25,578 nucleotides of DNA from a virus: the IMG/VR virus record IMGVR_UViG_3300040758_000113. One strand, given 5' to 3'. Position numbers and translations under genes: made by a program. A model generated the notes under the pieces. The model was given only the letters and a program-made list of their open reading frames with translations, did no database searches and was not told the DNA's origin. Position 1 is the stretch's first letter. Every line of letters starts with the position of its first letter. Positions 2,239 to 23,006 of this stretch are shown here, piece after piece.

Positions 2239-2946
2239 ATGAAAAGAGTTGGAGATTTGACAAACAGGAGGTTGGGGCATTTAGTTGCATTAAGAAGAGA
2301 TGAATTTATACCCCGAAAGTGGGTATGCAAATGTGATTGCGGCAAAGAATGCTGCGTTGAGGGAAGAAAGCTAAACTCCGGGGTCAGGAGTAGCTGTGGT
2401 TGTAGGGGGTTTGAAAACATTGTCGGTAAACGATTCGGATACCTTACCGTCCTTGGATTAAAGGAGATACACAATCAAAAAACTTTCTTTGAATGTCTTT
2501 GTGATTGTGGAAAAATAACCGTTGTCGGTAGATGCAAGTTGTTGGACAGTCACACAAGGAGTTGCGGGTGCTTGTACACGCAAACCCGAGAGAGCGAGCG
2601 TAAAGCCTTTGGTGCATCCGCTGCCAGAAAAACTGTAAGACAGTATGAACGTAACGCCGTGGCGAGAAACCTTGTTTTTGGTCTTACTAATGAGGAAGCG
2701 ATTGATATCCTTAAAAAAGACTGTTGGTACTGTGGGTCTCCACCACAGCGGGAAGTGCGGCTCGCAACGGGATACGGATACTTTATGTGCAATGGAATCG
2801 ACCGCTTAAACAACGACCTCGGATATTTAAAAGATAATATCGTTCCCGCTTGTAAGAAATGTAATGAGAGGAAGAAAGCGGATTCCGTTGATGAGTTTCT
2901 GCATTGGGTGGAGCGCATAGCGAAATACAGATTGGGGTTAAAATAA
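2239..2946 (+). CDS. HNH-type (His-Me finger) homing-endonuclease-like protein with two N-terminal W-x-C-x-C-D-C-G…S-C-G-C zinc-binding repeats; Asp-Arg at the canonical Asp-His position
   Basis: C-terminus is CWYCG…GYGY…NGIDRLNNDLGYLKDNIVPACKKCNERK, i.e. a C-x-x-C … C-x-x-C-N-x-x-K zinc site framing a ββα-metal core. Two N-terminal repeats: WVCKCDCGKE…SSCGCRG and FFECLCDCGK…SCGCLY. AGGAGG ribosome-binding site. Gene is visibly AT-richer than the flanks. Confidence 0.8.
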   Translation: MKRVGDLTNRRLGHLVALRRDEFIPRKWVCKCDCGKECCVEGRKLNSGVRSSCGCRGFENIVGKRFGYLTVLGLKEIHNQKTFFECLCDCGKITVVGRCKLLDSHTRSCGCLYTQTRESERKAFGASAARKTVRQYERNAVARNLVFGLTNEEAIDILKKDCWYCGSPPQREVRLATGYGYFMCNGIDRLNNDLGYLKDNIVPACKKCNERKKADSVDEFLHWVERIAKYRLGLK

Positions 2947-3425
2947 TGAATATCCTATACTATCCCACAGAGATTTTACTCCAAAGGTCTGAGACGGTTA
3001 CGGAATTTGGCGAATTTTTAGTAAAACTGTGCAATGAAATGATAGAAATAATGTTATCTTACAACGGTTTGGGTTTAGCTGCTCCCCAAGTGGGTGTTAG
3101 TCGAAGAGTCTTTATCATGAAACTTGCGGACGGTAAAAAAATAATTGCTGTCAACCCAAAAATTACGCCTAAAGGTGAGTATAAGATTATTGAGGAGGGT
3201 TGCTTGTCCTTCCCAAATTTTTACGGACCTGTTTCTCGACGGGATGAATGTACAATTATCTATCAAGAGCCAATGAGCGGGAAAGAAACGACTTTGGAAC
3301 TCACGGGTTTAGACGCTCATTGCGCTCAACACGAAGAGGACCACATCAACGGAATTCTTTTTATTCAGAGGATGCCGAAGCATTATCGCAAAAAGCTTTT
3401 GAAGGAATGGAGCAAAAAGCATTAA
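2946..3425 (+). CDS. def: peptide deformylase
   Basis: All three PDF motifs are present: GLGLAAPQVG (G-Φ-G-Φ-AA-x-Q), EEGCLSFP (EGCLS) and AQHEEDHINGILF (HExxH metal site). The start ATG overlaps the upstream TAA by 1 nt (TAATG), which suggests translational coupling to the HNH gene. AT-rich like its upstream neighbour. Confidence 0.9.
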   Translation: MNILYYPTEILLQRSETVTEFGEFLVKLCNEMIEIMLSYNGLGLAAPQVGVSRRVFIMKLADGKKIIAVNPKITPKGEYKIIEEGCLSFPNFYGPVSRRDECTIIYQEPMSGKETTLELTGLDAHCAQHEEDHINGILFIQRMPKHYRKKLLKEWSKKH

Positions 3426-3795: not shown

Positions 3796-4083
3796 ATGGC
3801 ATCGAAGCGTAATCCCCATCTATCAAGGTTGAGCACCGAGGAGTTGGAAGCCGAACTTGAAGCTCGGGAAGCGGAGGGAAATGCGCCTCCCCCGCTGCTT
3901 GAGAAACCCGACTGGAACAATCTGAAAGCTTTCGTGGTGAGCCAGATTGAGGAAATCTCCAAGCCAGACGGCTATGCCAAGGACTTCGAGCACTATGTGT
4001 TCGAGCAAGTCATGAGTACCCTTTATGGCAAGGGATTTTGGGCTTGGTACAATGAAGGACCCTGCGAGCGTGCCGGTGGTTAA
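3796..4083 (+). CDS. hypothetical protein (95 aa)
   Basis: Strong ribosome-binding site AAGGAGG 6 nt before the ATG. Coding-like ORF that follows the long structured spacer. Confidence 0.6.
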   Translation: MASKRNPHLSRLSTEELEAELEAREAEGNAPPPLLEKPDWNNLKAFVVSQIEEISKPDGYAKDFEHYVFEQVMSTLYGKGFWAWYNEGPCERAGG

Positions 4084-4091
4084 GGACAACC

Positions 4092-4514
4092 ATGACCCCG
4101 TTTGGAAAGGTGTTCCAAATCCGTTGGAAGGAGGCACTCGGCAGACCCGAGTGCCCCTACCTTTATCGGTGGACGCTTATCATCTTCGGGTTCTCCATCC
4201 GGCTCCATCACTGGCTCCGGTCAGATGACCGGCGTTTTTTCCACGACCATGCCAGCAATTTCGTATCTATTATTCTCAAAGGTCATTACAAGAATGTGAC
4301 CCCGGATGGGACCTTCGAGGTTAAGGCCGGGTCTATCTGGAAATCGGACGCCTTGCGCCGTCACTACTTGGACATTCCCAAAGGCGGGGCTTGGACTTTG
4401 CTCTTCTGTGGTCGGCCCTACCATAAGTGGGGATTCTACGTGAAGGGGCACAAGTGGCGTCCTTTACGCTATTTCAGCAAGTTTGGAATCATTCAAGACG
4501 AGAATTACCAGTAG
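4092..4514 (+). CDS. conserved phage-type hypothetical protein with HHW…D…HDH motif (140 aa)
   Basis: AAGGA ribosome-binding site 5 nt upstream. Contains RLHHWLRSDDRRFFHDHASNFVSIILKGHY, a His-cluster pattern I recall in small phage proteins of unknown function. No family is assigned with certainty. Confidence 0.6.
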   Translation: MTPFGKVFQIRWKEALGRPECPYLYRWTLIIFGFSIRLHHWLRSDDRRFFHDHASNFVSIILKGHYKNVTPDGTFEVKAGSIWKSDALRRHYLDIPKGGAWTLLFCGRPYHKWGFYVKGHKWRPLRYFSKFGIIQDENYQ

Positions 4515-4521
4515 GAGACGT

Positions 4522-4809
4522 ATGGGAAAGAAAATTCAGATGTTAAGCCCGGTGGTCTGCTTGCATTGCGGAGCGGTCTACGACCTGTGTGCCACGGAAC
4601 CAATCGCCCGCCACGCCGACTGTGACGTATTCAAAACACCATGCTGCCATCGGACCGCCGACACCCACAAGTGGAAGGGTCTGCCAGATTACCAGGACCT
4701 GCGGCAGGATGATTTCATGCCCATGGATATCATGGGGAACATGCGTCATATGCGCATCATCGACCCGGAGGAAACTCGGGCGGCTATCAGGGCCAAGGAG
4801 GTTGTATGA
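4522..4809 (+). CDS. small Cys-rich (zinc-ribbon-like) protein
   Basis: GGAG 5 nt before ATG 4522, which is internal to track ORF 4483-4809 but avoids overlap with the previous gene. Sequence CLHCG…(17)…CDVFKTPCCH. Confidence 0.5.
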   Translation: MGKKIQMLSPVVCLHCGAVYDLCATEPIARHADCDVFKTPCCHRTADTHKWKGLPDYQDLRQDDFMPMDIMGNMRHMRIIDPEETRAAIRAKEVV

Positions 4810-5078
4810 GCACTGGAACACTGACTTGCACCGTGGGATGTAACAGCGTCCAAATCAACAAACGGGGCGATGACTGCTTTGGAGCGCCCAACACCATTTA
4901 CGCCCGAGTCATCAGCCGGGACGGCAACAATGTCTACCTTGAAGAGGCGGATGTTGCTAAGATTCTTGAACTTATGGGGGTTTTGAAGGACGTTATCTCC
5001 CATGGCCTGACCAGCACCCCCAAGGACAAAAAGGCGTGGGCAAAGAAACGCAGCACATTTTCCTCCACTGCCGCCTGA
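4806..5078 (+). CDS. hypothetical protein (90 aa)
   Basis: ATGA overlap with the upstream stop. AAGGAGG ribosome-binding site. Confidence 0.55.
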   Translation: MSTGTLTCTVGCNSVQINKRGDDCFGAPNTIYARVISRDGNNVYLEEADVAKILELMGVLKDVISHGLTSTPKDKKAWAKKRSTFSSTAA

Positions 5079-5079
5079 C

Positions 5080-5108
5080 TTCGTGGTATACTGTTACTGA
5101 GGAGACCT
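5080..5108 (+). promoter_or_regulatory. Promoter-like box copy 2: TTCGTGGTATACT plus TGAGGAGAC Shine-Dalgarno, upstream of pnk
   Basis: ttcgtggtatact at 5080-5092 and GAGGAG at 5099-5104. The TGAGGAGA box is identical to copy 1. It sits at the head of the Pnk–HNH–HNH–Rnl operon. Confidence 0.5.
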
Positions 5109-6197
5109 ATGGAACTCGAAAAGACATCGCACAGTGAACAGTACATGGATTACTCCGGGGGTAAGGAAAATGCCCCCACGCTGACCGTTATGGTCGGCCC
5201 GGCTGGCTCAGGAAAGTCCACCCATGCCCGCAGTCTTGTCAACTGGGCAGCGGGAGCGACCGTCCGGGTAAACCGGGACACCATCCGTGCCATGCTCTAC
5301 TGTGATTCCCCGTGGAACCACTCGAAGGAAGATGTGGTCCGCAAGTATGAGGAAGAGGGCATCCGTATGTTCCTCGCCATGGGACTCAACGTCATCGTGG
5401 ATGACACCAACTGCGTGTCCCGCACCCGGCAAAAGCTGGAAGAGATTGCCCGTGGCGCTCGGGTAAAGTTCTGCCTGCATGTCATGAACGTGGACAAGGA
5501 AGAGTGTAAGCGGCGGAACGCCCTACGCACCGGCAAAGAATGCGTGCCCGAGGAAGCCATCGACCAACAGTTCAAGCGGCTGCGGGAAACAACCGTCCGC
5601 CCGGCTGGCTACGGTCTGGATGAAACCAACCGGGCGGTAGACGACTGGAACGAGCTTAACGCCGTCATCGCCGGGGGCAGGGACTTTCACGAGCGCCTGC
5701 CGGGCGCACCGTGGGTGTTCTGCGACGTGGACGGCAGCCTTGCCGAGAACGAGGGCGAGCGGAACCAGTTCGACGAGACGAAGGTCCTGCTGGACTCCTG
5801 CCGGGAGGGCGTGGCGAAGTGGGTCCGGGGACTGTACAGCACCCACAATATCGGAATTCTCAGTGGAAGACACGACTCCTGCTCGACAGACACTTGTTCT
5901 TGGCTGAGTTGTTATCGGGTGCCATTCGACCTCCTCTTGATGCGCCCGGCTACCAACTTTGACCACGATTATATCGTCAAGCGACGGATTATGGAGACGA
6001 TACTCCGGGTCATTCCGAAGGAACGAATAGCTTTTTTGATTGATGACAGATGGCAAGTAATCCGTATGTGGAAGGACATGGGGTTCAAGGTTTACCCTGT
6101 GGGCGGAACCACGGACCACTCTGCTACTTGCCAGTTCAAGCCGGAAAAGAAAGGTTGGAGGCATTGCCCCCGATGCGGAGCCTACGAAGATTTTTGA
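5109..6197 (+). CDS. pseT: polynucleotide 5'-kinase / 3'-phosphatase (T4 Pnk-like, bifunctional)
   Basis: N-terminal kinase domain: Walker A VGPAGSGKST, then VNRDTIR and IVDDTN. C-terminal HAD phosphatase domain: FCDVDGSL (DxDGT motif) and FLIDDRWQVIRMWKDMGF. Both domains are collinear with T4 Pnk (GCPGSGKST … DVDGTL … IDDRTQVVEMW). Confidence 0.9.
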   Translation: MELEKTSHSEQYMDYSGGKENAPTLTVMVGPAGSGKSTHARSLVNWAAGATVRVNRDTIRAMLYCDSPWNHSKEDVVRKYEEEGIRMFLAMGLNVIVDDTNCVSRTRQKLEEIARGARVKFCLHVMNVDKEECKRRNALRTGKECVPEEAIDQQFKRLRETTVRPAGYGLDETNRAVDDWNELNAVIAGGRDFHERLPGAPWVFCDVDGSLAENEGERNQFDETKVLLDSCREGVAKWVRGLYSTHNIGILSGRHDSCSTDTCSWLSCYRVPFDLLLMRPATNFDHDYIVKRRIMETILRVIPKERIAFLIDDRWQVIRMWKDMGFKVYPVGGTTDHSATCQFKPEKKGWRHCPRCGAYEDF

Positions 6198-6254
6198 CGA
6201 CTGAACTATTGGATGCCTATATTGGGGGGTGCTCCAATAGAGCATTCATAGACT

Positions 6255-7028
6255 ATGTGGAAACTGAACTGCCCACGCTGTGGGAAGGAAAGGGAATACA
6301 AGCGGTATAGCTCCTATTGGCAAGCGATTAAAGACGGCTCAATATGCCAAACTTGTTCAGGAATCAAGAGCCGTGCTTTGACGCCAGAACAAGAAGAACA
6401 AGCAGTAAGCCTCAACAAAGACGGGGTGTCTAATCGTAAGATTGCTCTGCAATTTGGCGTATCGAGAAACACGGTCAGAGAAACACTGAGTAAGCACGGA
6501 CTAAGGTCAAGCTCCCGTATCAGGCATAGGCTGGATATCATAGATGCCGAACGGGCGAGATGTTGGAAGTGTAAAGAAGTGAAGCCTGTCGGTGATTTCA
6601 AGTTGGTTGCTCGACCGGGAAATGACCCATACAGGGAGTCGGTGTGCCGTGGATGCCGAGAAAAAGAAAGCACTCTCAGAATGGCCTCTGATTTTCGTAA
6701 ATACCTGAAAGCAAGATGGGGCAGGCTTAGAAAAAGTTCTGAGAAAAACAAGGTGCTTTTCAGCATCAACCCAGAGGACCTATATCGACAGTATGAAGAA
6801 CAGGATGGTAGGTGTTTCTATACCGACTATCCACTCAGTTTGGAGCCTAATGCAGCTTTAACCCTTTCGGTTGACAGGGTAGTCCCGGAAGGGGGGTATG
6901 TCAAAGGAAATGTCGTGCTCTGTGGTAAACGGGTGAACACCATAAAAAATGATGTAACCTTGGAGGAAATGATGACTTGGATGCCCGATTGGTATGCTCG
7001 GGCGGAAAAGTTCAAGAGGGTCTTATGA
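6255..7028 (+). CDS. HTH + zinc-ribbon protein with a C-terminal degenerate HNH-like domain; domesticated homing-endonuclease-like or DNA-binding regulator; paralog of the 8996 gene
   Basis: CPRC…CQTC ribbon, then helix-turn-helix GVSNRKIALQFGVSRNTVRETL, then a CWKC…CRGC ribbon. C-terminus CFYTD…LSVDRVVPEGGYVKGNVVLCGKRVNTIKND aligns with the HNH core of the 2239 gene, but only 2 of the 4 Zn-ligand Cys remain and the catalytic position is D-R. Confidence 0.75.
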   Translation: MWKLNCPRCGKEREYKRYSSYWQAIKDGSICQTCSGIKSRALTPEQEEQAVSLNKDGVSNRKIALQFGVSRNTVRETLSKHGLRSSSRIRHRLDIIDAERARCWKCKEVKPVGDFKLVARPGNDPYRESVCRGCREKESTLRMASDFRKYLKARWGRLRKSSEKNKVLFSINPEDLYRQYEEQDGRCFYTDYPLSLEPNAALTLSVDRVVPEGGYVKGNVVLCGKRVNTIKNDVTLEEMMTWMPDWYARAEKFKRVL

Positions 7029-7684
7029 GCATCTGTGGCAAGCCAATGCCGAAAGCGAGGAATGGAGCCGACCGGGGAATCTGCACTAGACCACATAATC
7101 ATGGTCCCAAAGGTGGTTGTCACGGCAACGGCACTTGTTTCGGATGCGGTATTAAACTGACATCTTTAACATCTAGTTTTTCTGTTGCTAACCGTGGACA
7201 AGGAGAGTGTAAAGTTTGTAAAAAAGAACGGTGCAGGAAGGACCGTGGTAGCCAACCACTTAATGTCCAGAATCCCGGAGAATTTCACGCTTTTCCGTGT
7301 GGGTGCAGTGGAGTTCTCCCTGTAGAAGGTTCAAACAAGTTTTCTATGGCAGGAACTCATCGAGGGAAAAGACAATATGTTTGTCGTGTGTCTTTCATTA
7401 TCAAGGGTTCTAATGACAGAGCAAAAAAGGGGAGATACCAACCCATTTTTCAAGATACCCCTCATACGGTAATTCGTAAATTGATGGAGGAGCCTAACTG
7501 CGAATGTTGTGGAGAAACACTGTCATGGAAAGTGTTAGCACGTGGAAAAACTCCCCACCTTCATCATGACCATAAAACAGGCGAAATCTATGGATTCGCC
7601 CACCCAAAATGTAACCCTTTAGCAATGGAGAAAGAAATAGAACGACTGAAAGCCTTGCTTAAAGCACAAGAGATGGATTTATGA
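7025..7684 (+). CDS. HNH homing endonuclease (canonical HH-DH) with Cys-rich N-terminus
   Basis: CECCGETLSWKV…HLHHDHKTGEIYGFAHPKCN is the classic HNH motif. The start is taken at ATG 7025 (ATGA overlap with the 6255 stop, AGAGGG ribosome-binding site) rather than the track start 6977. The stop overlaps the rnl start (ATGA). Confidence 0.8.
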   Translation: MSICGKPMPKARNGADRGICTRPHNHGPKGGCHGNGTCFGCGIKLTSLTSSFSVANRGQGECKVCKKERCRKDRGSQPLNVQNPGEFHAFPCGCSGVLPVEGSNKFSMAGTHRGKRQYVCRVSFIIKGSNDRAKKGRYQPIFQDTPHTVIRKLMEEPNCECCGETLSWKVLARGKTPHLHHDHKTGEIYGFAHPKCNPLAMEKEIERLKALLKAQEMDL

Positions 7685-8934
7685 AGCTTGAAAATCTGCT
7701 AAACATTGACGAACTGAACAAGCAAATCAGGGAGGGTTTTATCAATGAGCGCCGTCACCCCGCACTGCCCCTGCGAATCCTGAATTACTCGAATCGTTGT
7801 ACTTTCGAGAATCACTGGTCTCTTGAAGCTTGTATCTGCCGTGGTCTGATTGTGGATGACGCCGGGGTGATTGTATCCAGACCCCCATCAAAATTTTTCA
7901 ACCTCAACCAAAGAGGACCCCACATTTTCCGCAACAATCAGGGGGAGTTGGAAGTTCAAGACGAGACGTTCACCCCAGAGTTCCTCCTCGGGCAGGCGAA
8001 GATGTGGAGGTCTCCTATAACCATCACCCGCAAGCTGGATGGGTGGGCGGGAATCTCGTGGCACTACGAGGGCATCTACGGGGTCGCCAGCCGGGGTTCC
8101 TTTGACTCGCCGGGGGCGCAGTATGCCACGGAGAAGGTGCAGAAGTTCGTCAAGTATAGGGCGTTCGCTGATTTCCTTCCCGAGGATACCACTCTGTTCT
8201 TTGAGATTATCTCCAAGATTACCAAGGTGGTTGTCCCCTACAACTTCGAGGGGCTGGTGCTTATTGCTGCCATTGCCAACGAGACCGGGGAGGAATTGGA
8301 ATACCCCGAGCTTGAGGCTTTCCACAAGCAGCTAAACAGCTATGCCAAGGACCGGGACTGGTGCCGGTTGGTGCCGAAGTTCGACATGTCGGTGGAAGAG
8401 TGCATGGCGGACAAGGACATGACGGAGGAGGGCTATGTTGCTGCCGTCTACCGGCCTCACTTCCCGCCTGTCCGGGCGAAGGTGAAGCTCGCCGAGTACT
8501 GTAGAATCCACAGGATTGTCACGGGAGTCACACCCCAGAAAATCTGGCAAGAAATGCACAATCCCATGTCTCCCTGGCTTGACCATAACAGCAAGCTGAA
8601 CCATAATACAGGTGAAGTCCTCTACGATTTGTCTGTTCCAAGGGACTTTGCCAAATGGGTCAAAGGTTGGCAGATGGGATTGTACAAGGCGTTCCACGAT
8701 AAGCTTTTGCAAGCCCTGAAAGCACAGAAGGCTTACAACGAGTTAGAGCGTGGCATCTACCCTGAGCACCGAAACAGGCTGCACTACTTGCATGGGTGTT
8801 TTCCCGTTGATATTGTCAATGCTGCCATCAAGCTAGAGAACGGCAACATTGTTGGAGCCTATGAGATTTTATGGAAGATGGTTCGTCCCTATGGTCGGGA
8901 GGAAACATACTATTTCGATGGCAAGGGAGAATGA
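7681..8934 (+). CDS. rnlA: RNA ligase, Rnl1 family (T4 RnlA-like)
   Basis: Collinear with T4 Rnl1: LEACICRGLIV matches T4 ALECRGIMF, RPPSKFFNLNQ matches RPMEKFFNLNE, and the nucleotidyltransferase motif I is ITRKLDGWAGIS (K-x-D-G lysine adenylation site), matching T4 LTKEDGSLVS. Confidence 0.88.
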   Translation: MKLENLLNIDELNKQIREGFINERRHPALPLRILNYSNRCTFENHWSLEACICRGLIVDDAGVIVSRPPSKFFNLNQRGPHIFRNNQGELEVQDETFTPEFLLGQAKMWRSPITITRKLDGWAGISWHYEGIYGVASRGSFDSPGAQYATEKVQKFVKYRAFADFLPEDTTLFFEIISKITKVVVPYNFEGLVLIAAIANETGEELEYPELEAFHKQLNSYAKDRDWCRLVPKFDMSVEECMADKDMTEEGYVAAVYRPHFPPVRAKVKLAEYCRIHRIVTGVTPQKIWQEMHNPMSPWLDHNSKLNHNTGEVLYDLSVPRDFAKWVKGWQMGLYKAFHDKLLQALKAQKAYNELERGIYPEHRNRLHYLHGCFPVDIVNAAIKLENGNIVGAYEILWKMVRPYGREETYYFDGKGE

Positions 8935-8995
8935 ATATCAAAAAATGAACTACCCAGTGCTTAGATAAATGCAAATTCACTAGGTGGGTTCATAA

Positions 8996-9844
8996 ATGCC
9001 GACTAAGACTAATGATAGTATAATCGCACAAATCCTGAGTCTGCACCAGCAAGGGCTGAAGGACAAGGAGATTGCCGATAAGCTCGGAACGAGCAAGACC
9101 AACGTCCAGCATTATCTGGAGGGCAGGAGGGTCGTCCATAGGCGCAAGAAGGGTGACAAAACCCCCATAACCGATGATATACGGAGACAGATTATCCAGT
9201 TGCATGCTGGGGGCCTGAATGATTGGGAGATTGCCAGCGAACTTGATATAGGAAAGAGCACAGTCTCCTCATTTTTGCTTGGGAAGCGGGTCATCAACCA
9301 TAAGCCAAGAAGGCAATACACGGGGGATGGTCACATCATCTGTTCTATATGCAAGCACTCCAAGTCCTCTGATGAGTTCGGCTCTCCAAGGTCAAACGGA
9401 AGGACGATATCCGAGTCATCGTTCTGCAAGGAGTGCCAGAGAGATAAGACCTTCAAGCGGCTATCCGACCCGTTAACCTATCTCCGCAAGCGGGTGAACG
9501 ACTTGGCGGCAAGGTCCCGGAAACTCGGGGTCATTTTCAGACTGACGGTAGAAGACGCTTGGAGGATATATACTGAACAAAGGGGTAAGTGCTTTTACAC
9601 AGGCGAACAGATGGCGCTTGCCCCCCGTTCAAAGGTGGCGGGCTTAAGAACATCATTGTCCTTTGACAAGGTAGTTCCAGAGCGGGGGTATGAGGAGAGC
9701 AATGTAGTCCTGTGTACCTACAAGGCAAACGCCGTCAAGCAGGACTTGACCTTGGACGAGATACGTGATTGGCTTCCGGGATGGTATCAAAAGTTGAAGG
9801 CATGTAGCCGTCTCGGCATAGGAAACATAATGTGCGCTCTTTGA
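8996..9844 (+). CDS. tandem-HTH + zinc-ribbon protein with a degenerate HNH-like C-terminal domain (paralog of 6255)
   Basis: Two HTH units: LKDKEIADKLGTSKTNVQHYL and LNDWEIASELDIGKSTVSSFL. Ribbon CSIC…CKEC. C-terminus CFYTGEQ…LSFDKVVPERGYEESNVVLCTYKANAVKQD, which is HNH-like with D-K at the catalytic position and only 2 of the 4 Zn Cys. AGGTGG ribosome-binding site. Base composition is closer to the backbone than the intact endonuclease genes. Confidence 0.75.
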   Translation: MPTKTNDSIIAQILSLHQQGLKDKEIADKLGTSKTNVQHYLEGRRVVHRRKKGDKTPITDDIRRQIIQLHAGGLNDWEIASELDIGKSTVSSFLLGKRVINHKPRRQYTGDGHIICSICKHSKSSDEFGSPRSNGRTISESSFCKECQRDKTFKRLSDPLTYLRKRVNDLAARSRKLGVIFRLTVEDAWRIYTEQRGKCFYTGEQMALAPRSKVAGLRTSLSFDKVVPERGYEESNVVLCTYKANAVKQDLTLDEIRDWLPGWYQKLKACSRLGIGNIMCAL

Positions 9845-9933
9845 CCTCAGACAGCGGCGGCGGTCGCCGCCAGCACGGCAATAGGGATGACTTGGTGGAG
9901 ATATTGGCGCTACCGAGCCTTTCAGACTTGGAG

Positions 9934-10155
9934 ATGGGTATGTTCAAGGTGGGAGACAAAGCGGAAACCACAACCGGTCTCTCCGGGACGCTGACTGATT
10001 ACGATGTGATATTTGGGAGATTTTTTCTCAGGTGTCCCGATGGATTCGGGTTGTGGGTACACCCCGAGAACCTCAAGTTACCGCTCGGGAACAAATGCCC
10101 TGTAAACGAGACAAATGAGACAGATGTTCCCGTTCGGGAACGGAGCAACATATGA
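9934..10155 (+). CDS. small hypothetical protein (73 aa)
   Basis: In-frame ATG 9934 preceded by CTTGGAG. The track ORF 9832-10155 would overlap the upstream stop region, so the start is uncertain. Confidence 0.4.
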   Translation: MGMFKVGDKAETTTGLSGTLTDYDVIFGRFFLRCPDGFGLWVHPENLKLPLGNKCPVNETNETDVPVRERSNI

Positions 10156-10691
10156 AACAGAGCCGATTCTATATCCACTATATTCTGACTGACAAGGGGG
10201 AGGAATCCATCGAGTTTTCCGACAAGCTTTGTAAGCTACTCCGGGAGCGCTTTCCTGCGGACACGTTCTTCCAGAAATTCACCCCGGAAGTCATGAATCC
10301 CAACCTCCCCGGTACGCCCGGTATGGACCGCACTACCCTGACGTGGAAGCCGGTGGAGAATTCTAAGGTTCTGCTCATTGGCATTGGTGTCGGCGGCTTG
10401 TTCGGTTACCGATTGCAGCTTGAGAAAGAGTTTGAAGGTGTATCCCTCATCGCCGTCTGTCCGCCGCCCGGCCTCAGCCTTGCCCCCGCAGGAGGTCCAA
10501 GAGCGGTGCTGTACGGCTCCAAGGAAGGCGTGTACTCCCTTCCCATTGAGAAGTACCATGTGCCGCACACGCAGACCTTTGGCATCCCGTCCCTCCAGCA
10601 TGGTCCCCAACTGGCGTTCTATGCCATCGCCTACTTGGTGGACAAGTACATGCAAGAAGAGGACTTACTGCCGGAAATGAGAAAGTTATGA
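10152..10691 (+). CDS. hypothetical protein (179 aa)
   Basis: ATGA overlap with the upstream stop. GGAGC ribosome-binding site. No motif recognised. Confidence 0.6.
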   Translation: MKQSRFYIHYILTDKGEESIEFSDKLCKLLRERFPADTFFQKFTPEVMNPNLPGTPGMDRTTLTWKPVENSKVLLIGIGVGGLFGYRLQLEKEFEGVSLIAVCPPPGLSLAPAGGPRAVLYGSKEGVYSLPIEKYHVPHTQTFGIPSLQHGPQLAFYAIAYLVDKYMQEEDLLPEMRKL

Positions 10692-10921: not shown

Positions 10922-10957
10922 AAACAACTTCCTAATACTATTATGGGGGAGGTTGTT

Positions 10958-11692
10958 ATGTTCATTTATCTAATCGTCAATAGTATAACAGGAAAATACT
11001 ATGTTGGGCAGCACAAGGGAAATAACTTAACAAAGTATCTACAGCAAAAATTCAATCATGCCCAGACGGGAATCTCCACCCGTTCCCACCTCTATAATTC
11101 AATGAGAGCACACCCTGACCCTAAAGTCTGGTCTATTCATGCTCTCCGGTCGGATATCCAGACAAGAAAAGAACTTAATGAAATTGAACAAGATTTTATT
11201 AAGTTTCTAAAGTCTCAAGACTCAGAGTATGGCTATAACATCTGCCGAGAAGGGGAAGGATTTACGGGGCCTGTATCTCAAGAAAGTCGCCAAAGAATGT
11301 CCCAAGCTCAGAAAAAAAGATGGTCTGACAATAAACTTCGTGCCGAGAAAAGTGAAACCAGTAGAGAGGTGTGGGCTAAAAATCCAACCCTTCGTGCTAA
11401 AGTCACTAAAGCCGTAATTAAAACATGGGCTAACTCGGAACTTCGTACCCTTCGTTCAGAAATTAGCAAAAAACTGTGGGATAATTCCGACTTTAGAAAA
11501 ATGGTTAAAGAAAGCAGAAAGAGGGGTAAAAAATGGAAGTTAACTCCTCAAGGACTTGAAAAAATAAAAAGGTATCATATGGGTATAAAGCTAACCGATG
11601 AATCACGAAAGAAAATAAGTGGGGGAATAAGAAGAGCTTGGATAGATGGTAAGTATAACAAGAGAGTAACTAAACACATAACAAAAACGTAG
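10958..11692 (+). CDS. GIY-YIG homing endonuclease (I-TevI-like) with NUMOD3-type repeats
   Basis: MFIYLIVNSITGKYYVGQ…YGYNI is the GIY-YIG core. The downstream basic region has repeated S-x-E-x-R-x-K-x-S motifs. Start set at ATG 10958, preceded by GGGGGAGG, rather than track ATG 10943. Strongly AT-rich island. Confidence 0.85.
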   Translation: MFIYLIVNSITGKYYVGQHKGNNLTKYLQQKFNHAQTGISTRSHLYNSMRAHPDPKVWSIHALRSDIQTRKELNEIEQDFIKFLKSQDSEYGYNICREGEGFTGPVSQESRQRMSQAQKKRWSDNKLRAEKSETSREVWAKNPTLRAKVTKAVIKTWANSELRTLRSEISKKLWDNSDFRKMVKESRKRGKKWKLTPQGLEKIKRYHMGIKLTDESRKKISGGIRRAWIDGKYNKRVTKHITKT

Positions 11693-11742: not shown

Positions 11743-11761
11743 TTCGTGGTATACTGTAGGT
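11743..11761 (+). promoter_or_regulatory. Promoter-like box copy 3: TTCGTGGTATACT directly abutting the start codon, implying a leaderless or very short-leader mRNA
   Basis: ttcgtggtatact at 11743-11755. The TATACT hexamer ends 6 nt before ATG 11762. The conserved GGAGAC of copies 1 and 2 here overlaps codons 2-3 (ATG GAG ACT). Confidence 0.45.
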
Positions 11762-12899: not shown

Positions 12900-14816
12900 A
12901 TGAGCGAATCCATTTGTCCTCTTATAACCCAATACACTAACGAATTGGGAATAGACCCGCAAGTGCTTGAAAGACTGTATCTTATCCGAAAGTGGGACAT
13001 TGACCCCAACCACCCAGAAATCACTCCCATACCATTCAAATGGCCGTCTCTTCTAAGGACCAAAGTACTCAACTTTGATACCGGGCAAGAGGAGGAGCCC
13101 CTTAATATCAGGGAATATCAGAAGGTTCAAATTCATCATCTATCACGGATGAACCGCTTTATAAATGGAGATAATGTCGGACTTGGAAAGACCATTGATG
13201 CCATCGCTGCCTGTTGTTGGCTAAAGGATAGATTACCAGACATAAAGACCGTAGTAATTACGACTAGGAGTACTACCCACCAGTGGTTCGATGAATTATC
13301 TCGATTCAGCAACCTACGTCCTTTTGTGATGCGGGATATTTATCGAGGGAAGAAATCCTCCGAATCCAGGTATCAGCAACTTCGTGATTTCTTGATGGGA
13401 AATAAGAAGGATGTACTTATATGCAAATACTCTTCTATGATAGGGGTAAGGAAGAGAGTAGAGGGACGGTTTGATGAAGATGGAAATCCCGTAAATAATG
13501 GAAAAGAGAGGATTTCGCAAGAGATAAAGACATTTTCAGAGATTCTCAAAGAGTACAAAGACAAGACTATTCTGATATTTGACGAATGCCATAGATTCAA
13601 AAGTCGGGGCACCCAGACCCGTGCCTTAGTTATGGCTTTAGCCAAGCAGGGGCGGTGGGTGTGGGGGCTTACCGGAACTGTTATGAAGAACTCTCTCGAT
13701 GAGTTTTATAATGTGGCTTCAGCAATCGGAATCAAGCCATTTGGGAGCTTATGGGACTTTGATGAGGAATTTTGTCTATTCCGAAAGCAGTATATTGGAA
13801 GAGGCCGTCATATCCGGGTTCTTGCTGGGTATAAGAATGTAGAGAAATTTAAGCAGGGTATTCGTCCCTTTTACTTAGGTAGGAGTCAGAGGCAAGTCAA
13901 GGAGCCGCTTCCACGTCTAGTCACCATCTACCATCCGGTGGAACTGGACGAAAGACAGAAAAAGCTTTTGCTGGAGGATATACCTTCAGGTAAATTCCAA
14001 CTTCCTCCATCCTTGGTTAAAGTAGCGGGGGAAGTCTATGAGCAGGAGAGGGACCCTGATAACCAAATGACTCAGCTTTCAGTTCAGCAATTGGTTGCAA
14101 ATCATTGGGCATTGCTTGACCCGTCAAATGAGAAGGACTTTCATATAAAAACATTAAGCCCCAAAGAAGAGTCGTTGCTTGACCTTCTGGATGGTGATTT
14201 GTTGGGGGAAAAAGTTATTGTTTTCACTAAATACCGAACCTTTATAGACCGGCTTGACTGGCTGACGAAAAATGGGCACTTTACTAGCCGCAAGTTTCTC
14301 AGAATTACAGGACGGGAAAATGAGAAGCAAAGAAATGAAAGTAAGCGGTTGTTTCAATCTCCTGATTCCGGCTACGACCTAATCGTTATAAACTCCGCTG
14401 GATTCGAGGGTATTAACCTTCAGCAAGCTCCCAATATGGTATGTCTTGATGTCCCCTGGTCGTTTGGAGACATGCTCCAACTAGTTGGTAGGATGGTAAG
14501 GATGGCGTCTCCACACACAGTGTGTACTCTACACATTCTTCCGGCAAGGGGAACAGTGGATGAATATGCCATAGATACGCTTAAGAACAAGAGGGGGGTC
14601 TTTGCAAAGATTCTGGGGGGGTCTTATACAACAGGCTTGTTAGATAATGAGGAGTGCCTTGATTTAGATGCTGGTAGTATAGAGTCCGCCGCCTCCGATA
14701 ATGAGTTTCGTTCTCTACTCAAGGCGCATTGCAAAAAACTTAGTCTGGGGAAGTTCTTAAAGGGGGAGTTTCTGGGAATTTCTAGCAAAGAAGACGAAAG
14801 AGTAATGGATGATTAA
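12900..14816 (+). CDS. SNF2/Rad54-family helicase (DEAH-box superfamily 2 ATPase)
   Basis: Motif I GDNVGLGKTIDAIAA, motif II ILIFDECHRFKS, motif III GLTGTVMKNSLDEFYNV, motif V LIVINSAGFEGINLQ, motif VI QLVGRMVRMAS. Confidence 0.9.
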   Translation: MSESICPLITQYTNELGIDPQVLERLYLIRKWDIDPNHPEITPIPFKWPSLLRTKVLNFDTGQEEEPLNIREYQKVQIHHLSRMNRFINGDNVGLGKTIDAIAACCWLKDRLPDIKTVVITTRSTTHQWFDELSRFSNLRPFVMRDIYRGKKSSESRYQQLRDFLMGNKKDVLICKYSSMIGVRKRVEGRFDEDGNPVNNGKERISQEIKTFSEILKEYKDKTILIFDECHRFKSRGTQTRALVMALAKQGRWVWGLTGTVMKNSLDEFYNVASAIGIKPFGSLWDFDEEFCLFRKQYIGRGRHIRVLAGYKNVEKFKQGIRPFYLGRSQRQVKEPLPRLVTIYHPVELDERQKKLLLEDIPSGKFQLPPSLVKVAGEVYEQERDPDNQMTQLSVQQLVANHWALLDPSNEKDFHIKTLSPKEESLLDLLDGDLLGEKVIVFTKYRTFIDRLDWLTKNGHFTSRKFLRITGRENEKQRNESKRLFQSPDSGYDLIVINSAGFEGINLQQAPNMVCLDVPWSFGDMLQLVGRMVRMASPHTVCTLHILPARGTVDEYAIDTLKNKRGVFAKILGGSYTTGLLDNEECLDLDAGSIESAASDNEFRSLLKAHCKKLSLGKFLKGEFLGISSKEDERVMDD

Positions 14817-15348
14817 TCCATCCATGGCAATAAATAAGAAAAAACGGGGGCATAACACTGAGTACGCCTTCTTGTGTAGAGGTTGCGGTCGGGAAATTTG
14901 GAGACGAGGTTGCTATCTTTCTAAAAACGACTCTCCTGGGTACTGTCACACGTGCGGAAATAGAAAAATTTGGAGTTGCAAACTTCAACCATTTGAGCAC
15001 ATCTTAACCTATCTGAAAAGACAAAATCACCCCGTTTTCTTATCCTACGAAGAATTGTTGGAATTCACACATATAGAAACCTGTGAATATTGTGGCTCAT
15101 TGGTCTCATGGGAGTCAAGAAAATCATTTAAGCGTTGTACCCATGCAACAAACCTAGATAGAAAAAACAATAGCCTTGGATATTCTAAAGATAACTGTGT
15201 TGTTTGTTGTTGGGAATGTAACCGGGTAAGGGGGAATGTATATTCATATTATGAAATGAAGAAAATTGGAAAGTTGCTAAAAATCTTGAAAAATTCAAAG
15301 AAATCCAGTAATAATAAAGGGGAATGCAATGAGCAATATGGTGGTTAG
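14809..15348 (+). CDS. HNH-like endonuclease (Asp-Arg variant), AT-rich
   Basis: CEYCGSLVSWE…NLDRKNNSLGYSKDNCVVCCWECNRVRG has the same architecture as the 2239 C-terminus, with all four Zn Cys present and D-R at the catalytic position. Overlaps the SNF2 stop by 8 nt. AT-rich. Confidence 0.75.
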   Translation: MINPSMAINKKKRGHNTEYAFLCRGCGREIWRRGCYLSKNDSPGYCHTCGNRKIWSCKLQPFEHILTYLKRQNHPVFLSYEELLEFTHIETCEYCGSLVSWESRKSFKRCTHATNLDRKNNSLGYSKDNCVVCCWECNRVRGNVYSYYEMKKIGKLLKILKNSKKSSNNKGECNEQYGG

Positions 15349-19669: not shown

Positions 19670-20368
19670 TTAGGTGCTTGAATAAAGGAGACATTTTCTA
19701 CGATGTCCCCCATAGGAAGAACGAGTCACTCCCGTAAATATCCGGCTACAATGGTCACAGGTAAAGTTATATGTTTTGGTAGCTAAGGTATGAGACATCT
19801 TGTTCCTTTGTTTTTCACCCCACCTATGCCCAAAGTTAGGATTGTTTTCTCCTTTAATGGTTTGGCTTAGGCTTATAGCTTGTCGTTTGTGGGCTTCTGG
19901 GGAGAGGGAATCCTTGCCCTTTTTTGCTTTAGATATATTTTGTCTATGCTCATAAGTTTTAGGTATACCCCTTAGACGCAAAGATTGTGCTAATTTTTCT
20001 TTTTCCGTGTATGGACGGTGTTTTTTACTTTTCATCTTAGCTATTGTTTCGGGGGTGTGGTGCCAACCTCGCCTTACATTCCCGGTTCCTTTTTCGCTCA
20101 AATTGTAGTTGAACATCCATGTCGCCTGAATCCAATAGGTTTCTCGTTCCCTCATCCCTTGTTCTGGACATGGTTCGATTACCTCAAAAGAAAAGGCTTG
20201 TTCTCCATGCTTATTCCAAGAGTTTTGTAATTTTTGGTTTCCATGTGTATTATGTCTCAGTTGTTTAAGGTGAGTTCTCCATCGACAGGGGATGTTTTTA
20301 GAACTTCCAATGTAAAACACCCCCGTGACAGTATTAACTATACGATAGATTCCACAACGAGTTGTCAT
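19670..20368 (-). CDS. GIY-YIG homing endonuclease with NUMOD3-like repeats and C-terminal Cys/His cluster
   Basis: GIYRIVNTVTGVFYIGSS…R…H…ETYWIQ is the GIY-YIG core. Downstream basic repeats (SPEAHKRQAISLS…ENNPNFGHRWGEK). AT-rich. Minus strand, divergent from the + strand 20371 gene. Confidence 0.85.
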   Translation of the reverse strand: MTTRCGIYRIVNTVTGVFYIGSSKNIPCRWRTHLKQLRHNTHGNQKLQNSWNKHGEQAFSFEVIEPCPEQGMRERETYWIQATWMFNYNLSEKGTGNVRRGWHHTPETIAKMKSKKHRPYTEKEKLAQSLRLRGIPKTYEHRQNISKAKKGKDSLSPEAHKRQAISLSQTIKGENNPNFGHRWGEKQRNKMSHTLATKTYNFTCDHCSRIFTGVTRSSYGGHRRKCLLYSST

Positions 20369-20370
20369 AT

Positions 20371-21375
20371 ATGAGAATCGAAAAGTCGGAATATGTGAAA
20401 ATCAATTTTGTTTGGTCAACAGATTGGCATCTTAGCGCCATTCCGCCCGGACAACGTGGCGATGACTATGAATCGGTCATTTTGGAGAAGCTTGATTTCA
20501 TCCGGGACTTGACCGAAAAGGTTAAGGGTTTCGCACTCTGTGGTGGGGATGTATTCCACGTGAAAAAGGCCCACCACCCTGCTAACAGTCTGTCTCTCCT
20601 TGTGCGGACGCTGCGGACATTGCGGAAGTTCCCCATGGGCCGGGTGTATGGGGCGGTGGGCAATCACGACTTGGCATGGGGCGAGCGGATGGATTCGCTC
20701 TCGGGTCAGCCCCTCGGCCTTCTTATCGCTTCCGGGGCCTATGCGGACCTGACCGAAGAGTGCCTGATGGTGAGTTCGCAGTTTGCTTCCTTGAAGGTAC
20801 AGGTACAGTCCTTTCCCTATGACCACGGTCAGGAGACGCTGCATAGGATAAAGGCTTCCCACAGACATGGGGATGCCAACTACTTTGTGGGCATCGTTCA
20901 TGCCTATGGTCAGCCGGGCGGACCCAGCGATTACTTTGGTGAACGGGTCATCGGCTACGACGAACTTGCTGGCTCAGACTTTGATTTTTTGCTTTGGGGT
21001 CATGACCACGGGCGGCAGGAAACCAAGAAGGTGGGTAACACCACCCATGTGCATTTGGGGAGTCTCGCACGAGCGGCATTAGACAGCGACCAAGCGGAGC
21101 GCCCCGTGTCTGTAGCCGTGCTGTCATTCTCCGAGCAGGGACCGAAGTACAAGGAAATCGCCCTGCCCGTAAAGCCATTGGCGGAGGCGTTCGTTACTGC
21201 CGACCGGGAAGTCCGTCATATCGACAAGTCGGAGGAAGTCAAACAGTTCTTGACGCAGATGGAAGTAGCCGTGGGTGGTGTGGAAACATCCGACCCCGGC
21301 GAGGTTCTCAGGGAGCTTTGCCCCAAGGAAGATATCCGGTTGCTAATGCTGGTAAAGGAGCTATGCGGCCTATGA
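20371..21375 (+). CDS. Mre11/SbcD-like calcineurin-type phosphoesterase (nuclease)
   Basis: Metallophosphoesterase motifs in order: STDWHL, GGDVFHV, VGNHDL, VHAYG, WGHDHG. Start set at ATG 20371. The track start at 20362 is a TTG that would overlap the start codon of the minus-strand GIY-YIG gene. Confidence 0.78.
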   Translation: MRIEKSEYVKINFVWSTDWHLSAIPPGQRGDDYESVILEKLDFIRDLTEKVKGFALCGGDVFHVKKAHHPANSLSLLVRTLRTLRKFPMGRVYGAVGNHDLAWGERMDSLSGQPLGLLIASGAYADLTEECLMVSSQFASLKVQVQSFPYDHGQETLHRIKASHRHGDANYFVGIVHAYGQPGGPSDYFGERVIGYDELAGSDFDFLLWGHDHGRQETKKVGNTTHVHLGSLARAALDSDQAERPVSVAVLSFSEQGPKYKEIALPVKPLAEAFVTADREVRHIDKSEEVKQFLTQMEVAVGGVETSDPGEVLRELCPKEDIRLLMLVKELCGL

Positions 21376-21572
21376 AAATCAGCATCTACTCGTGGTTCGG
21401 TGAAGAAGACTTGGTGCTTCCCTACAAGCATAACGAGGTCATTGAAGTAGCCGAGGAACAACTGTGGAATATCGTCAAGGGTTTTTACATGAAGGGACTC
21501 TCGGTGATGGTCCGCAGCCTCAACAAGCTCACGCTGGTAGCGGTATCACGGGATACTTTCGGGCAAAGGTAG
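21363..21572 (+). CDS. small hypothetical protein (69 aa)
   Basis: AAGGAG 5 nt before ATG 21363. Overlaps the SbcD-like stop. Short and uncertain. Confidence 0.3.
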   Translation: MRPMKISIYSWFGEEDLVLPYKHNEVIEVAEEQLWNIVKGFYMKGLSVMVRSLNKLTLVAVSRDTFGQR

Positions 21573-21583
21573 AAGGAGACTAT

Positions 21584-22072
21584 TTGATAAACATCTATCT
21601 ATCGGGCGGCATTAAGGGGTTAACTGACGAGCAAGCTTACGGCTGGCGAAAGGCCGTCATTAAGCACTATCAACTTGCCACAGGGGGCTTTGGGCACAGC
21701 GGTATGGCCCCGGAGGAGCTTCAAGCCTCCAGCAAATGCCTTCACTACGGAGTGAATATCATTGTCCCCAGCCGTATGCAATATCGAGATGATGTTGACC
21801 TCAAGTCCGCTTCTCTTTGGGTAATCAAACGGGATAAGATTTCCATTACTCAGTCGGATATCGTCCTCACTTACTGTCCTGTGCCAAGCTGGGGCACGGC
21901 AATGGAAATCATGTACGCTCACGAATTGGACAAGTGGATTGTTGTCATCTGCGATGATGACAATCCAAGTCCTTGGCTGGTCGCTCACGCTGATGTCATC
22001 GTGCCCGGCCTTGACCTTGCTTATGACGAAATAGATAAGATAGCAAAGGATATGAGGAGCCAAATGCCATGA
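21584..22072 (+). CDS. nucleoside 2-deoxyribosyltransferase-like protein (NDT/Rcl-DNPH1/DUF4406 superfamily), probable TTG start
   Basis: INIYLSGGI…IIVPS…ITQSDIVLTYCPVPSWGTAMEIMYAHELDKWIVVI fits the NDT-fold pattern: N-terminal hydrophobic-YLAG, then a late D…VL..Y.P…G…E core. AAGGAG at 21573-21578 sits 5 nt before an in-frame TTG at 21584, and the domain begins right there. The track ATG 21464 start gives an N-terminal extension that overlaps another frame. Confidence 0.6.
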   Translation: MINIYLSGGIKGLTDEQAYGWRKAVIKHYQLATGGFGHSGMAPEELQASSKCLHYGVNIIVPSRMQYRDDVDLKSASLWVIKRDKISITQSDIVLTYCPVPSWGTAMEIMYAHELDKWIVVICDDDNPSPWLVAHADVIVPGLDLAYDEIDKIAKDMRSQMP

Positions 22073-22392: not shown

Positions 22393-23006
22393 TAATCCTT
22401 AACGGACAACCGAATCTATGGGTCACCGCCGACTGGCACTTGGGATACCGGTACTTTATCACCACCAAGAAGCGGCCCTTCTCCAGCGTGGAGGAAATGA
22501 ACGAGGCGTACATCGCCAACCACAACGCTGTAGTTAAGAAGGGGGACCTTGTCTACGTTCTCGGGGACCTCTACCTCCAGATGAAACTGGAGCAGTGCGT
22601 GGAAATCCAGAAACGACTCAACGGCAACTTCTACGTCATACAGGGAAACCACGACGGTATTGCTGTTCAGATGATGAAGAAACACAACTCTTTTGTCTGG
22701 ATACGCCAGCTTGAGGAAATCAAAATTGGTCAGCCATGGTTTGATGACAAGAGCAAGAAGATGGTTACGCTCTGCCACTATGCCATGCGCACGTGGAGAA
22801 ATTCTTGCTATAACAGCTATCATCTTTATGGGCATTCTCATGGAATGCTCCCTGATGAGCCGCACCTTCTCTCTATGGATGTAGGAGTTGATTGCAATAA
22901 CTTCTACCCTGTTTCTATCGAACAAGTTATACAGAGAATGGAGTCCAAGATGCCTACTAGGTTGGAATACTTAGAGAGTTTAAAGAGTTCTGGACGGGTG
23001 GAATAG
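22389..23006 (+). CDS. metallophosphoesterase (calcineurin-like, small single-domain)
   Basis: GTG start overlapping the upstream stop (GTGA). Motifs TADWHLGY, LGDLY, QGNHDG, GHSHG. Confidence 0.72.
   Translation: MIILNGQPNLWVTADWHLGYRYFITTKKRPFSSVEEMNEAYIANHNAVVKKGDLVYVLGDLYLQMKLEQCVEIQKRLNGNFYVIQGNHDGIAVQMMKKHNSFVWIRQLEEIKIGQPWFDDKSKKMVTLCHYAMRTWRNSCYNSYHLYGHSHGMLPDEPHLLSMDVGVDCNNFYPVSIEQVIQRMESKMPTRLEYLESLKSSGRVE

Follow-up and report, generated by a model that had tools for sequence, protein, structure and literature searches.

A T4-style RNA heal-and-seal module in an uncultured jumbo phage, probably invaded by free-standing homing endonuclease genes with co-converted flanks

Introduction

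How do nuclease genes come to lie between the two partners of an RNA repair pair, and what becomes of the enzymes on either side? The question is raised by a 25,578-nt stretch of viral DNA (IMG/VR virus record IMGVR_UViG_3300040758_000113), which was analysed in whole and is called the window here. It carries genes for a polynucleotide kinase-phosphatase (Pnk) and an RNA ligase (Rnl), with endonuclease-like genes between and beyond them. T4 Pnk and RNA ligase 1 (Rnl1) offset the anticodon nuclease PrrC (PMC1484252), an RNA ligase and a PNK-HAD protein are common in jumbo phages (PMC7824862), and intronless homing with co-conversion of flanks has been described (PMC2988022, PMC2790892). We propose that the locus is probably the T4-style heal-and-seal module of an uncultured jumbo phage of ~338 kb, known from environmental metagenomes, invaded by free-standing homing endonuclease genes (HEGs) whose flanks were co-converted.

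Results

Locus organization and relatives

Five genes occupy the + strand of the window between 5080 and 9850. An initial annotation of this DNA had described four of them, all at positions confirmed here, as a T4-type repair operon invaded by two stacked endonuclease genes; a third such gene, HEG3, directly downstream of rnl, was missed.

5109-6197, + strand: pnk, 362 amino acids (aa), predicted bifunctional polynucleotide 5'-kinase/3'-phosphatase of T4 architecture
6255-7028, + strand: HEG1, 257 aa, free-standing endonuclease-like gene
7025-7684, + strand: HEG2, 219 aa counted from the ATG start backed by homologues, free-standing HNH endonuclease gene
7681-8934, + strand: rnl, 417 aa, Rnl1-family ATP-dependent RNA ligase
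8996-9844, + strand: HEG3, paralogue of HEG1 directly downstream of rnl, beyond the stretch initially annotated

The HEG1/HEG2 and HEG2/rnl junctions are ATGA overlaps, read in the sequence at 7025-7028 and 7681-7684, respectively, while a spacer of 57 nt lies between pnk and HEG1, so that the overlaps initially described for both inserted genes hold at two junctions and fail at the first. The gap between rnl and HEG3 is 61 nt. The HEGs are separate intergenic open reading frames (ORFs), not within an intron or intein, and no Rfam family or group I intron was detected in the window at gathering thresholds.

A megablast of window positions 4000-10500 against INPHARED gave no match and thus no cultured close relative; at the protein level, the best matches were 25-34% identical and came from actinophages. 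In IMG/VR, the relative L001, equivalent to L002 (contigs of 317 and 238 kb), has a backbone ~96% identical to the window. An identical ligase is present on a 338-kb contig, and the contigs L005-L009, which also carry the identical ligase, are all at least 99.96% identical to the window. Apparent population variants with or without endonuclease genes among L005-L009 (a split HEG2, an odd upstream gene) were rejected as gene-calling artefacts.

Predicted healing and sealing enzymes

Pnk matched Pfam AAA_33 (1.1e-23) and HAD_PNKP (1.4e-23), both past the curated cut-offs, as well as PHROG 505, 'polynucleotide kinase' (1.6e-64). The kinase spans approximately aa 25-160 and the HAD phosphatase approximately aa 203-331, followed by a Cys/His tail at aa 335-362. 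The closest solved relative is bacterial Pnkp1 (PDB: 4xrp; 8.6e-26 over residues 20-322), and T4 Pnkp (PDB: 1ltq) was matched at 1.5e-11. An alignment with T4 PseT revealed the kinase P-loop GPAGSGKST together with D57, R60, and R140 as invariant, the latter three corresponding to D35, R38, and R126 in T4, and the phosphatase motifs DVDGS, SGR, IVK, and DDR line up with the T4 catalytic motifs. In motif I, the Thr of DxDxT is replaced by Ser (DVDGS) in this phage alone. Pnk is therefore a member of the T4-architecture kinase and HAD phosphatase family, in agreement with the initial annotation, and its intact catalytic motifs predict activity on RNA ends.

All full-length Pnk proteins of the clade are extended at the N-terminus, have a longer linker between their two domains, and end in a Cys/His tail, features that T4 Pnkp does not have. 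The tail (window 6111-6194, residues 335-362) follows the pattern H-x3-C ... H-C-P-x-C-G ... EDF and may be a zinc knuckle.

Rnl matched Pfam RNA_lig_T4_1 (PF09511; 1.1e-10, 42.3 bits versus a cut-off of 28.3) and phrog_562 (2.9e-46). Neither an alignment of 10 sequences, T4 Rnl1 included, nor one of 50 sequences shows any variation at R54, K71, F72, K118-x-D-G, E175, E250-G251, K267, and K269. These residues comprise nucleotidyltransferase motifs I (K118-L-D-G), III, IV, and V and the Rnl1-specific N-terminal elements, in which R54, K71, and F72 align with R54, K75, and F77 in T4. We take these invariant residues to be the positions essential in T4 Rnl1. The AlphaFold (AF2) model, with a mean predicted local distance difference test (pLDDT) score of 89.7, displays an adenylyltransferase domain followed by a C-terminal domain composed entirely of helices (residues 271-400). 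When this model was compared with the PDB by Foldseek, T4 Rnl1 ranked top (1.3e-16, full length, 424 aligned columns), followed by fungal Trl1 ligase domains and then by the Rnl3, Rnl5, and Rnl2 families. The template modeling (TM) score against T4 Rnl1 was only 0.48-0.53, which indicates that domain orientation or detail differs. The assignment to the Rnl1 family with T4 RnlA-like N-terminal motifs and a KxDG site is thus borne out; Rnl is an Rnl1-family ligase with all of the essential T4 Rnl1 residues, and its predicted role is the sealing of tRNA.

A related Rnl1 in the contig L020 (340-2502, protein P0042) is interrupted by an intein with a LAGLIDADG endonuclease domain, positioned directly after the adenylylation motif (...TRKMDGQ | CFLG...VHN | CGILW...). 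A PacI-like gene fragment lies immediately upstream of this gene.

Endonuclease-like genes in and next to the module

HEG1 comprises an N-terminal CxxC...CxxC motif, a helix-turn-helix (HTH) at aa 40-79 (HTH_7), and a PacI-type His-less HNH domain at approximately aa 128-244, and it matched phrog_1035 (7.6e-23). HEG3 has two HTH motifs and a PacI-type HNH domain (phrog_1035, 1.1e-16); the two proteins are paralogues of 32% identity (BLASTP 5e-34). Their C-terminal domain carries an endonuclease VII/HNH label in PHROGs and is missed by Pfam and NCBIfam. In public annotation, both proteins appear as 'lambda repressor-like / predicted transcriptional regulator'.

A profile of six HEG1-type proteins matched the restriction endonuclease PacI (PDB: 3ldy; 1.9e-8). 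PacI is the reference His-less HNH enzyme, in which an omega-loop Tyr replaces the catalytic His while an Asp and an Asn bind the metal (PMC5714182, PMC4081073); we deduced that this Tyr is Y100, since it is the sole Tyr between D92 and N113. HEG1 residues D207, Y215, and N228, invariant in six paralogues or homologues, align with D92, Y100, and N113 of PacI, and the motif [S/G/N]-x-D-[R/K] ... G-Y ... N ... N-x-x-K aligns with PacI D92-R93, Y100, N104, and N113. An Arg or Lys occupies the catalytic His position of the HEG1-type proteins. As in PacI and His-Me finger group 20, HEG1 and HEG3 have no catalytic His and retain the Tyr of the omega loop and the metal-binding Asp and Asn; unlike PacI, both proteins are larger, have added HTH and zinc-ribbon modules, and have lost two of the four CxxC cysteines. 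HEG1 had been described as an HTH protein with a degenerate HNH domain. The HTH and the HNH-like domain are there, and 'degenerate' is the wrong label because the Asp/Tyr/Asn catalytic set of the PacI subtype is intact. PacI-like genes are rare presumptive homing endonucleases in Skunavirus (PMC12724721).

No close relatives of HEG1 were found in the IMG/VR scans. The gene is absent from L001, and its G+C content is 0.47, compared with 0.51-0.59 for the backbone. HEG3 is positioned where L001, L013, and L015 have a membrane-protein gene after rnl, and the 339-kb relative L010 has an orthologue at the same position (87% aa identity).

HEG2 joins a Cys-rich N-terminal part to an HNH core, C159-x2-C162 ... 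P-H-L-H-H-D-H ... C196-N197. Its match to Pfam Endonuclease_7 (PF02945) is weak and below the cut-off (1.2e-3, 19.1 versus 23.6 bits), two members of its family reach PF02945, and HEG2 by itself yielded no meaningful match when its sequence was searched against the PDB. The family has at least 59 metagenomic homologues, among which the core C-x2-C ... P-H-L-H-H-x-H ... C-N is invariant. The consensus of the Endo VII motif and the DHHRN endonucleases consists of D40, H41, H43, R54, and N62 with CX2-4C and CX2C (PMC6083498). The C-terminal CxxC ... H-D-H ... C-N core that HEG2 shares with F-CphI and other DHHRN homing endonucleases is of Endo VII type, and the equivalents of H41, H43, and N62 are kept and invariant in its family. 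In contrast, D40 is replaced by His and R54 by Tyr throughout, and CX2C reads HxxC, one zinc ligand being a His. HEG2 is an HNH protein related to the Endo VII motif and not a DHHRN member, judging from these residues, so that the HNH core initially recognized (HHDH) stands while the word 'canonical' does not. HEG2 has a G+C content of 0.445 and is absent from L001, and the IMG/VR scans found no close relatives; in the L010 phage, a homologue of 52% identity is located ~140 kb away from the pnk and rnl genes. The initial view of the intervening genes as mobile, free-standing endonuclease genes agrees with their absence from L001, their low G+C content, and this second location in L010.

Another HEG2 homologue (P0147) lies on a 227-kb contig labelled by NCBI as a 'Candidatus Acidiferrales bacterium' metagenome-assembled genome, which is probably a mis-binned phage contig. 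The label points, if only weakly, to Acidobacteriota as possible hosts.

Mosaic flanks of the endonuclease-like genes

The window contains eight homing-endonuclease-like genes in 25.6 kb, which make up 22% of its bases, so that the pnk-rnl locus is not a special site. By type, there are four PacI-type HNH, one HH-type HNH, and three GIY-YIG genes:

2239-2946, + strand: endonuclease-like gene
6255-7028, + strand: endonuclease-like gene (HEG1)
7025-7684, + strand: endonuclease-like gene (HEG2)
8996-9844, + strand: endonuclease-like gene (HEG3)
10943-11692, + strand: endonuclease-like gene
14809-15348, + strand: endonuclease-like gene
19670-20368, - strand: endonuclease-like gene
22957-23670, - strand: endonuclease-like gene

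Seven of them fall within the 21 kb shared with L001/L003, and none of the seven is present in L001/L003. The endonuclease genes have G+C contents of 0.37-0.51 and coincide with the G+C troughs of the window.

Comparison with L001 disclosed abrupt breaks in both repair enzymes. In Pnk, aa 1-183 are 100% identical to L001 and aa 184-362 only 64.8%, with the break at the inter-domain linker; the second part is closer to L011 (80.4%). Correspondingly, nucleotide identity to L001 drops from 99% to 46% across 5620-6197. In Rnl, aa 111-260 are 96.7% identical to L001, while aa 1-110 are at 59% and aa 261-417 at 52.9%. The last third of rnl and HEG3 have the same nearest relative, L010 (81.5% and 87% aa identity, respectively). 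The divergent tracts are:

5657-6197, + strand: divergent 3' part of pnk, from the linker to the stop codon, presumably co-converted and lying upstream of the HEGs
7681-8010, + strand: divergent 5' third of rnl, the tract adjoining HEG2
8461-8934, + strand: divergent 3' third of rnl, the tract adjoining HEG3, 81.5% identical to L010

These replacements, together with the ORFs that endonuclease-free relatives hold between pnk and rnl (130 aa in L001, four or five small ones elsewhere), show that the initial description of genes inserted precisely between two partners is wrong.

Over the 21 kb shared with L001, with unaligned bases counted as mismatches, identity to L001 was higher the farther a position lay from its nearest endonuclease gene:

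Up to 250 nt: 54%
251-500 nt: 75%
501-1000 nt: 78%
1-2 kb: 80%
More than 2 kb: 96%

A divergent flank was present at five of the six endonuclease insertion sites. These breakpoints, and a divergence gradient centred on the endonuclease genes, are consistent with co-conversion, as a pattern in the sequence and not as an observed event.

Two further genes abut PacI-type endonuclease genes. A peptide deformylase gene (2946-3425) has a G+C content of 0.40 and is strongly diverged from L001 (80% where alignable), and an SNF2-family helicase gene (12900-14816) has a G+C content of 0.44 and is likewise strongly diverged (65-80% where alignable); by these comparisons, their pattern of flank replacement is the same as that of pnk and rnl. 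On the far side of the window, a calcineurin-like metallophosphoesterase gene (20362-21375, Pfam 4.8e-7) adjoins a GIY-YIG gene, and near it lies an ORF (21464-22072) with weak likeness to nucleoside 2-deoxyribosyltransferases.

The pnk-rnl interval in related genomes

All seven related jumbo-phage genomes have one gene order on one strand, peptide deformylase ... pnk - [slot] - rnl ... SNF2 helicase, so that pnk and rnl are not found in unrelated loci. The content of the slot between them varies:

Window: HEG1 and HEG2
L001: a single 130-aa ORF with no family match, ATGA-coupled on both sides
L011: five small ORFs
L013 and L015: four or five small ORFs, four of them common to both
L010: a deletion; the phosphatase domain is gone and an L011-type ORF is cut back to its last 35 codons
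L027: a GIY-YIG gene alone (L027 7122-8001)
L017/L026: a GIY-YIG and a PacI-like gene

The slots of L027 and L017/L026, which belong to a second clade, taken together suggest stepwise stacking of endonuclease genes at one site. Across clades, the ligase gene has been hit repeatedly by different mobile elements, namely GIY-YIG genes and a LAGLIDADG intein. Adjacency of pnk and rnl without intervening genes is not ancestral in this clade. The linkage of the two genes is general and already familiar; at the IMG/VR Rnl1 loci, pnk lies within 8 kb in 29 of 80, with gaps of 6-2776 nt, and on the same strand in all 29.

In L010 (5419-6001), Pnk is cut down to a 152-aa kinase domain, and the 36-aa ORF that follows is what is left of the C-terminal end of a slot ORF of the L011 type (91% identity). 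The deletion probably crippled the healing function of this relative.

Candidate regulatory elements

The conserved box initially noted ahead of pnk is real as a repeated sequence, with three exact 12-mers kept in L001, and is a candidate promoter. Two elements flank pnk:

5081-5092, + strand: candidate promoter box (extended -10-like), 12-mer TCGTGGTATACT, 16 nt before the pnk start codon
6206-6251, + strand: hairpin in the spacer between pnk and HEG1, with a core of 8 bp at 6220-6239 and a predicted RNA folding energy of -22.1 kcal/mol (z = -2.4 versus shuffles)

A Shine-Dalgarno sequence, GAGGAG, lies at 5099-5104 between the box and the pnk start codon. Exact copies of TCGTGGTATACT occur at 1656-1667, 5081-5092, and 11744-11755, all on the + strand and 15-25 nt ahead of gene start codons, each followed by a GGAGA Shine-Dalgarno sequence, and the box is retained at all three orthologous sites in L001. 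The 9-mer core, with up to one mismatch, gave 13 matches in the window compared with 3.1 expected. The GGTATACTA core is also located upstream of pnk in L013 and L015. TCGTGGTATACT may serve the phage as a promoter or a leader element.

Scans of the window for sigma-70 promoters and intrinsic terminators yielded chance-level results only, including a sigma-70-like match at 6194-6223 in the pnk/HEG1 spacer, and no terminator-like site was detected on the + strand within 5109-8934. Given their shared strand, the ATGA couplings, and the conserved box upstream, pnk, HEG1, HEG2, and rnl may form one operon co-transcribed from the box; the hairpin and the sigma-70-like match in the pnk/HEG1 spacer speak against it. 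The hairpin could attenuate transcription or control HEG1 translation, and the translation of rnl may be coupled to whichever gene precedes it.

Discussion

In the T4-style module proposed here, Pnk would convert RNA ends with 2',3'-cyclic phosphate and 5'-OH into 3'-OH and 5'-phosphate, and the Rnl1-type ligase would reseal the healed ends. By analogy with T4, the most likely substrate would be tRNA cut by host anticodon nucleases. HEG1 and HEG3 (PacI-type HNH with HTH) and HEG2 (Endo VII-related HNH) would spread by intronless homing, in which the endonuclease would cut an allele without its gene and donor-templated repair would copy the HEG together with flanking donor sequence. The outcome would be a chimeric Pnk with a native kinase and a foreign phosphatase domain, and a chimeric Rnl with a native core and foreign ends.

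Several observations weigh against this proposal. The anticodon-nuclease role is an analogy drawn from homology, and no tRNA genes were found in the window. Against NCBIfam TIGR02308, the T4 RnlA equivalog, Rnl scored 31.7 bits versus a cut-off of 242; because this cut-off is missed by far, Rnl is a member of the Rnl1 family and not of RnlA equivalog or orthologue grade. Regarding the nucleases, HEG1 (CFYTD ... LCGKRVN) and HEG3 (CFYTG ... LCTYKAN) retain one Cys per CxxC pair, two of four being lost, while both flanking CxxC pairs are intact in the window paralogues at 2239 and 14809. A low-confidence model of HEG1 (pLDDT 69), built from four window paralogues, gave generic HNH matches only, Gme HNH (probability 0.98, E 0.027) and Cas9 HNH, with PacI absent from the top 50 Foldseek matches. 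The family-wide changes of D40 and R54 in HEG2 likewise depart from the Endo VII/DHHRN consensus. Furthermore, the loss of the phosphatase domain in L010 means that the module is not under uniform constraint, and the slot also varies in relatives without endonuclease genes (L001, L011, L013, L015), so that recombination there does not require these nucleases.

This last point is the starting point for an alternative in which the pnk-rnl interval is a hyperplastic region whose cassettes are swapped when its conserved flanks undergo ordinary recombination, homologous or illegitimate, with the endonuclease genes as passive cargo. Five different slot contents in seven genomes, three of them without an endonuclease gene, are in line with it, and rnl is always abutted by its upstream gene, whichever that is, which suggests a fixed recombination boundary at the rnl start. 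We nevertheless consider passive cargo unlikely, given that divergence from L001 is graded with distance from endonuclease genes over all of the 21 kb compared, that divergent flanks occur at five of six insertion sites, and that the 3' tract of rnl and HEG3 share L010 as nearest relative. The nuclease and HTH genes might instead be domesticated. They could regulate the repair genes, or attack the DNA of a co-infecting phage or of the host in concert with the ligase, a role proposed for HNH-Rnl2 fusions. The ATGA coupling that joins HEG1, HEG2, and rnl, the HTH domains, and the public annotation of HEG1 and HEG3 as transcriptional regulators would fit such a role, as would the HNH-Rnl2 fusions in jumbo phages reported by Iyer et al. 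(PMC7824862) and SegB, a case of a homing endonuclease that can be of benefit to anti-defence loci (PMC13096335). However, the 96%-identical L001 and most of the other relatives dispense with the genes, and the same families adjoin unrelated window genes (deformylase, SNF2 helicase), which makes domestication very unlikely.

The repair enzymes themselves could serve another purpose, such as repair of mRNA or rRNA after other RNase defences, removal of DNA 3'-phosphates, or tail-fibre attachment like T4 gp63. T4 rnlA is annotated as both ligase and tail-fibre attachment gene, a dual name that phrog_562 also carries; the ligase C-terminal domain is only distantly T4-like, with low sequence identity and the overall TM score given above; and jumbo phages have several non-redundant ligases (PMC7824862). 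Such a purpose is in our view doubtful, as the healing and sealing genes lie on the same strand in 29 of 29 linked IMG/VR loci, which argues for a joint RNA-end pathway, and all ligase catalytic residues are kept. In an extension of the invasion model, homing endonucleases would drive the exchange of alleles in counter-defence genes domain by domain, yielding the chimeric Pnk and Rnl1. The endonuclease-rich pnk-rnl slot would be a hotspot under selection for diversification, through which RNA repair is retuned to differing nucleases of the host. The foreign N- and C-terminal parts of Rnl1, around a native adenylyltransferase core, would then be substrate-facing, and the benefit would be comparable to that of SegB at anti-defence loci; we regard this extension as quite unlikely.

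Compared with T4 PseT/RnlA, the proposed heal-and-seal module has the same two-domain Pnk (N-terminal P-loop kinase, C-terminal DxDxT HAD phosphatase) and the same ligase family with its essential residues. In both phages the two genes share a strand and are kept apart by unrelated genes, at a distance of 1433 bp in T4 and 1483 bp here. In contrast, rnlA comes first in T4 and pnk first here, the intervening genes are alc and pseT.1-3 in T4 and endonuclease genes here, and identity to T4 is ~21% for Rnl and ~31% for Pnk. The bacterial Pnkp1-Rnl-Hen1 complex (Capnocytophaga, 4xrp), which provides the closest solved Pnk relative, also has a separate ligase partner; unlike in that complex, no Hen1 methyltransferase was found among the scanned ORFs, and the ligase here matches T4 Rnl1 and not the bacterial partner.

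The density of endonuclease genes, eight in 25.6 kb, is much above that of T4, which has 15 homing endonuclease genes in 169 kb. Like the free-standing seg and mob homing endonucleases of T-even phages, the genes here are intergenic, present or absent among close relatives, and accompanied by divergent flanks in conserved neighbours (PMC2988022, PMC2790892). The nuclease types differ, those here being a PacI-type His-less HNH with HTH and an HH-type HNH related to Endo VII.

Every component of the locus is of a known kind and no new mechanism is revealed. Specific to this case are an unusually clear mosaic in two well-understood enzymes, a very high endonuclease-gene density, a near-identical endonuclease-free sibling genome, and a ligase gene that has been hit repeatedly. 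The window and L001 make a good natural donor/recipient pair for homing studies, a natural experiment with ~96% identical backbones, at least seven endonuclease genes different in 21 kb, and breakpoints at residue resolution in two enzymes of known structure. The pair is suited to studies of co-conversion tract lengths, of the function of chimeric repair enzymes, and of PacI-type His-less HNH proteins as homing endonucleases. For the phages concerned, the locus would extend the T4 heal-and-seal paradigm to an uncultured jumbo-phage clade with genomes of 200-435 kb.

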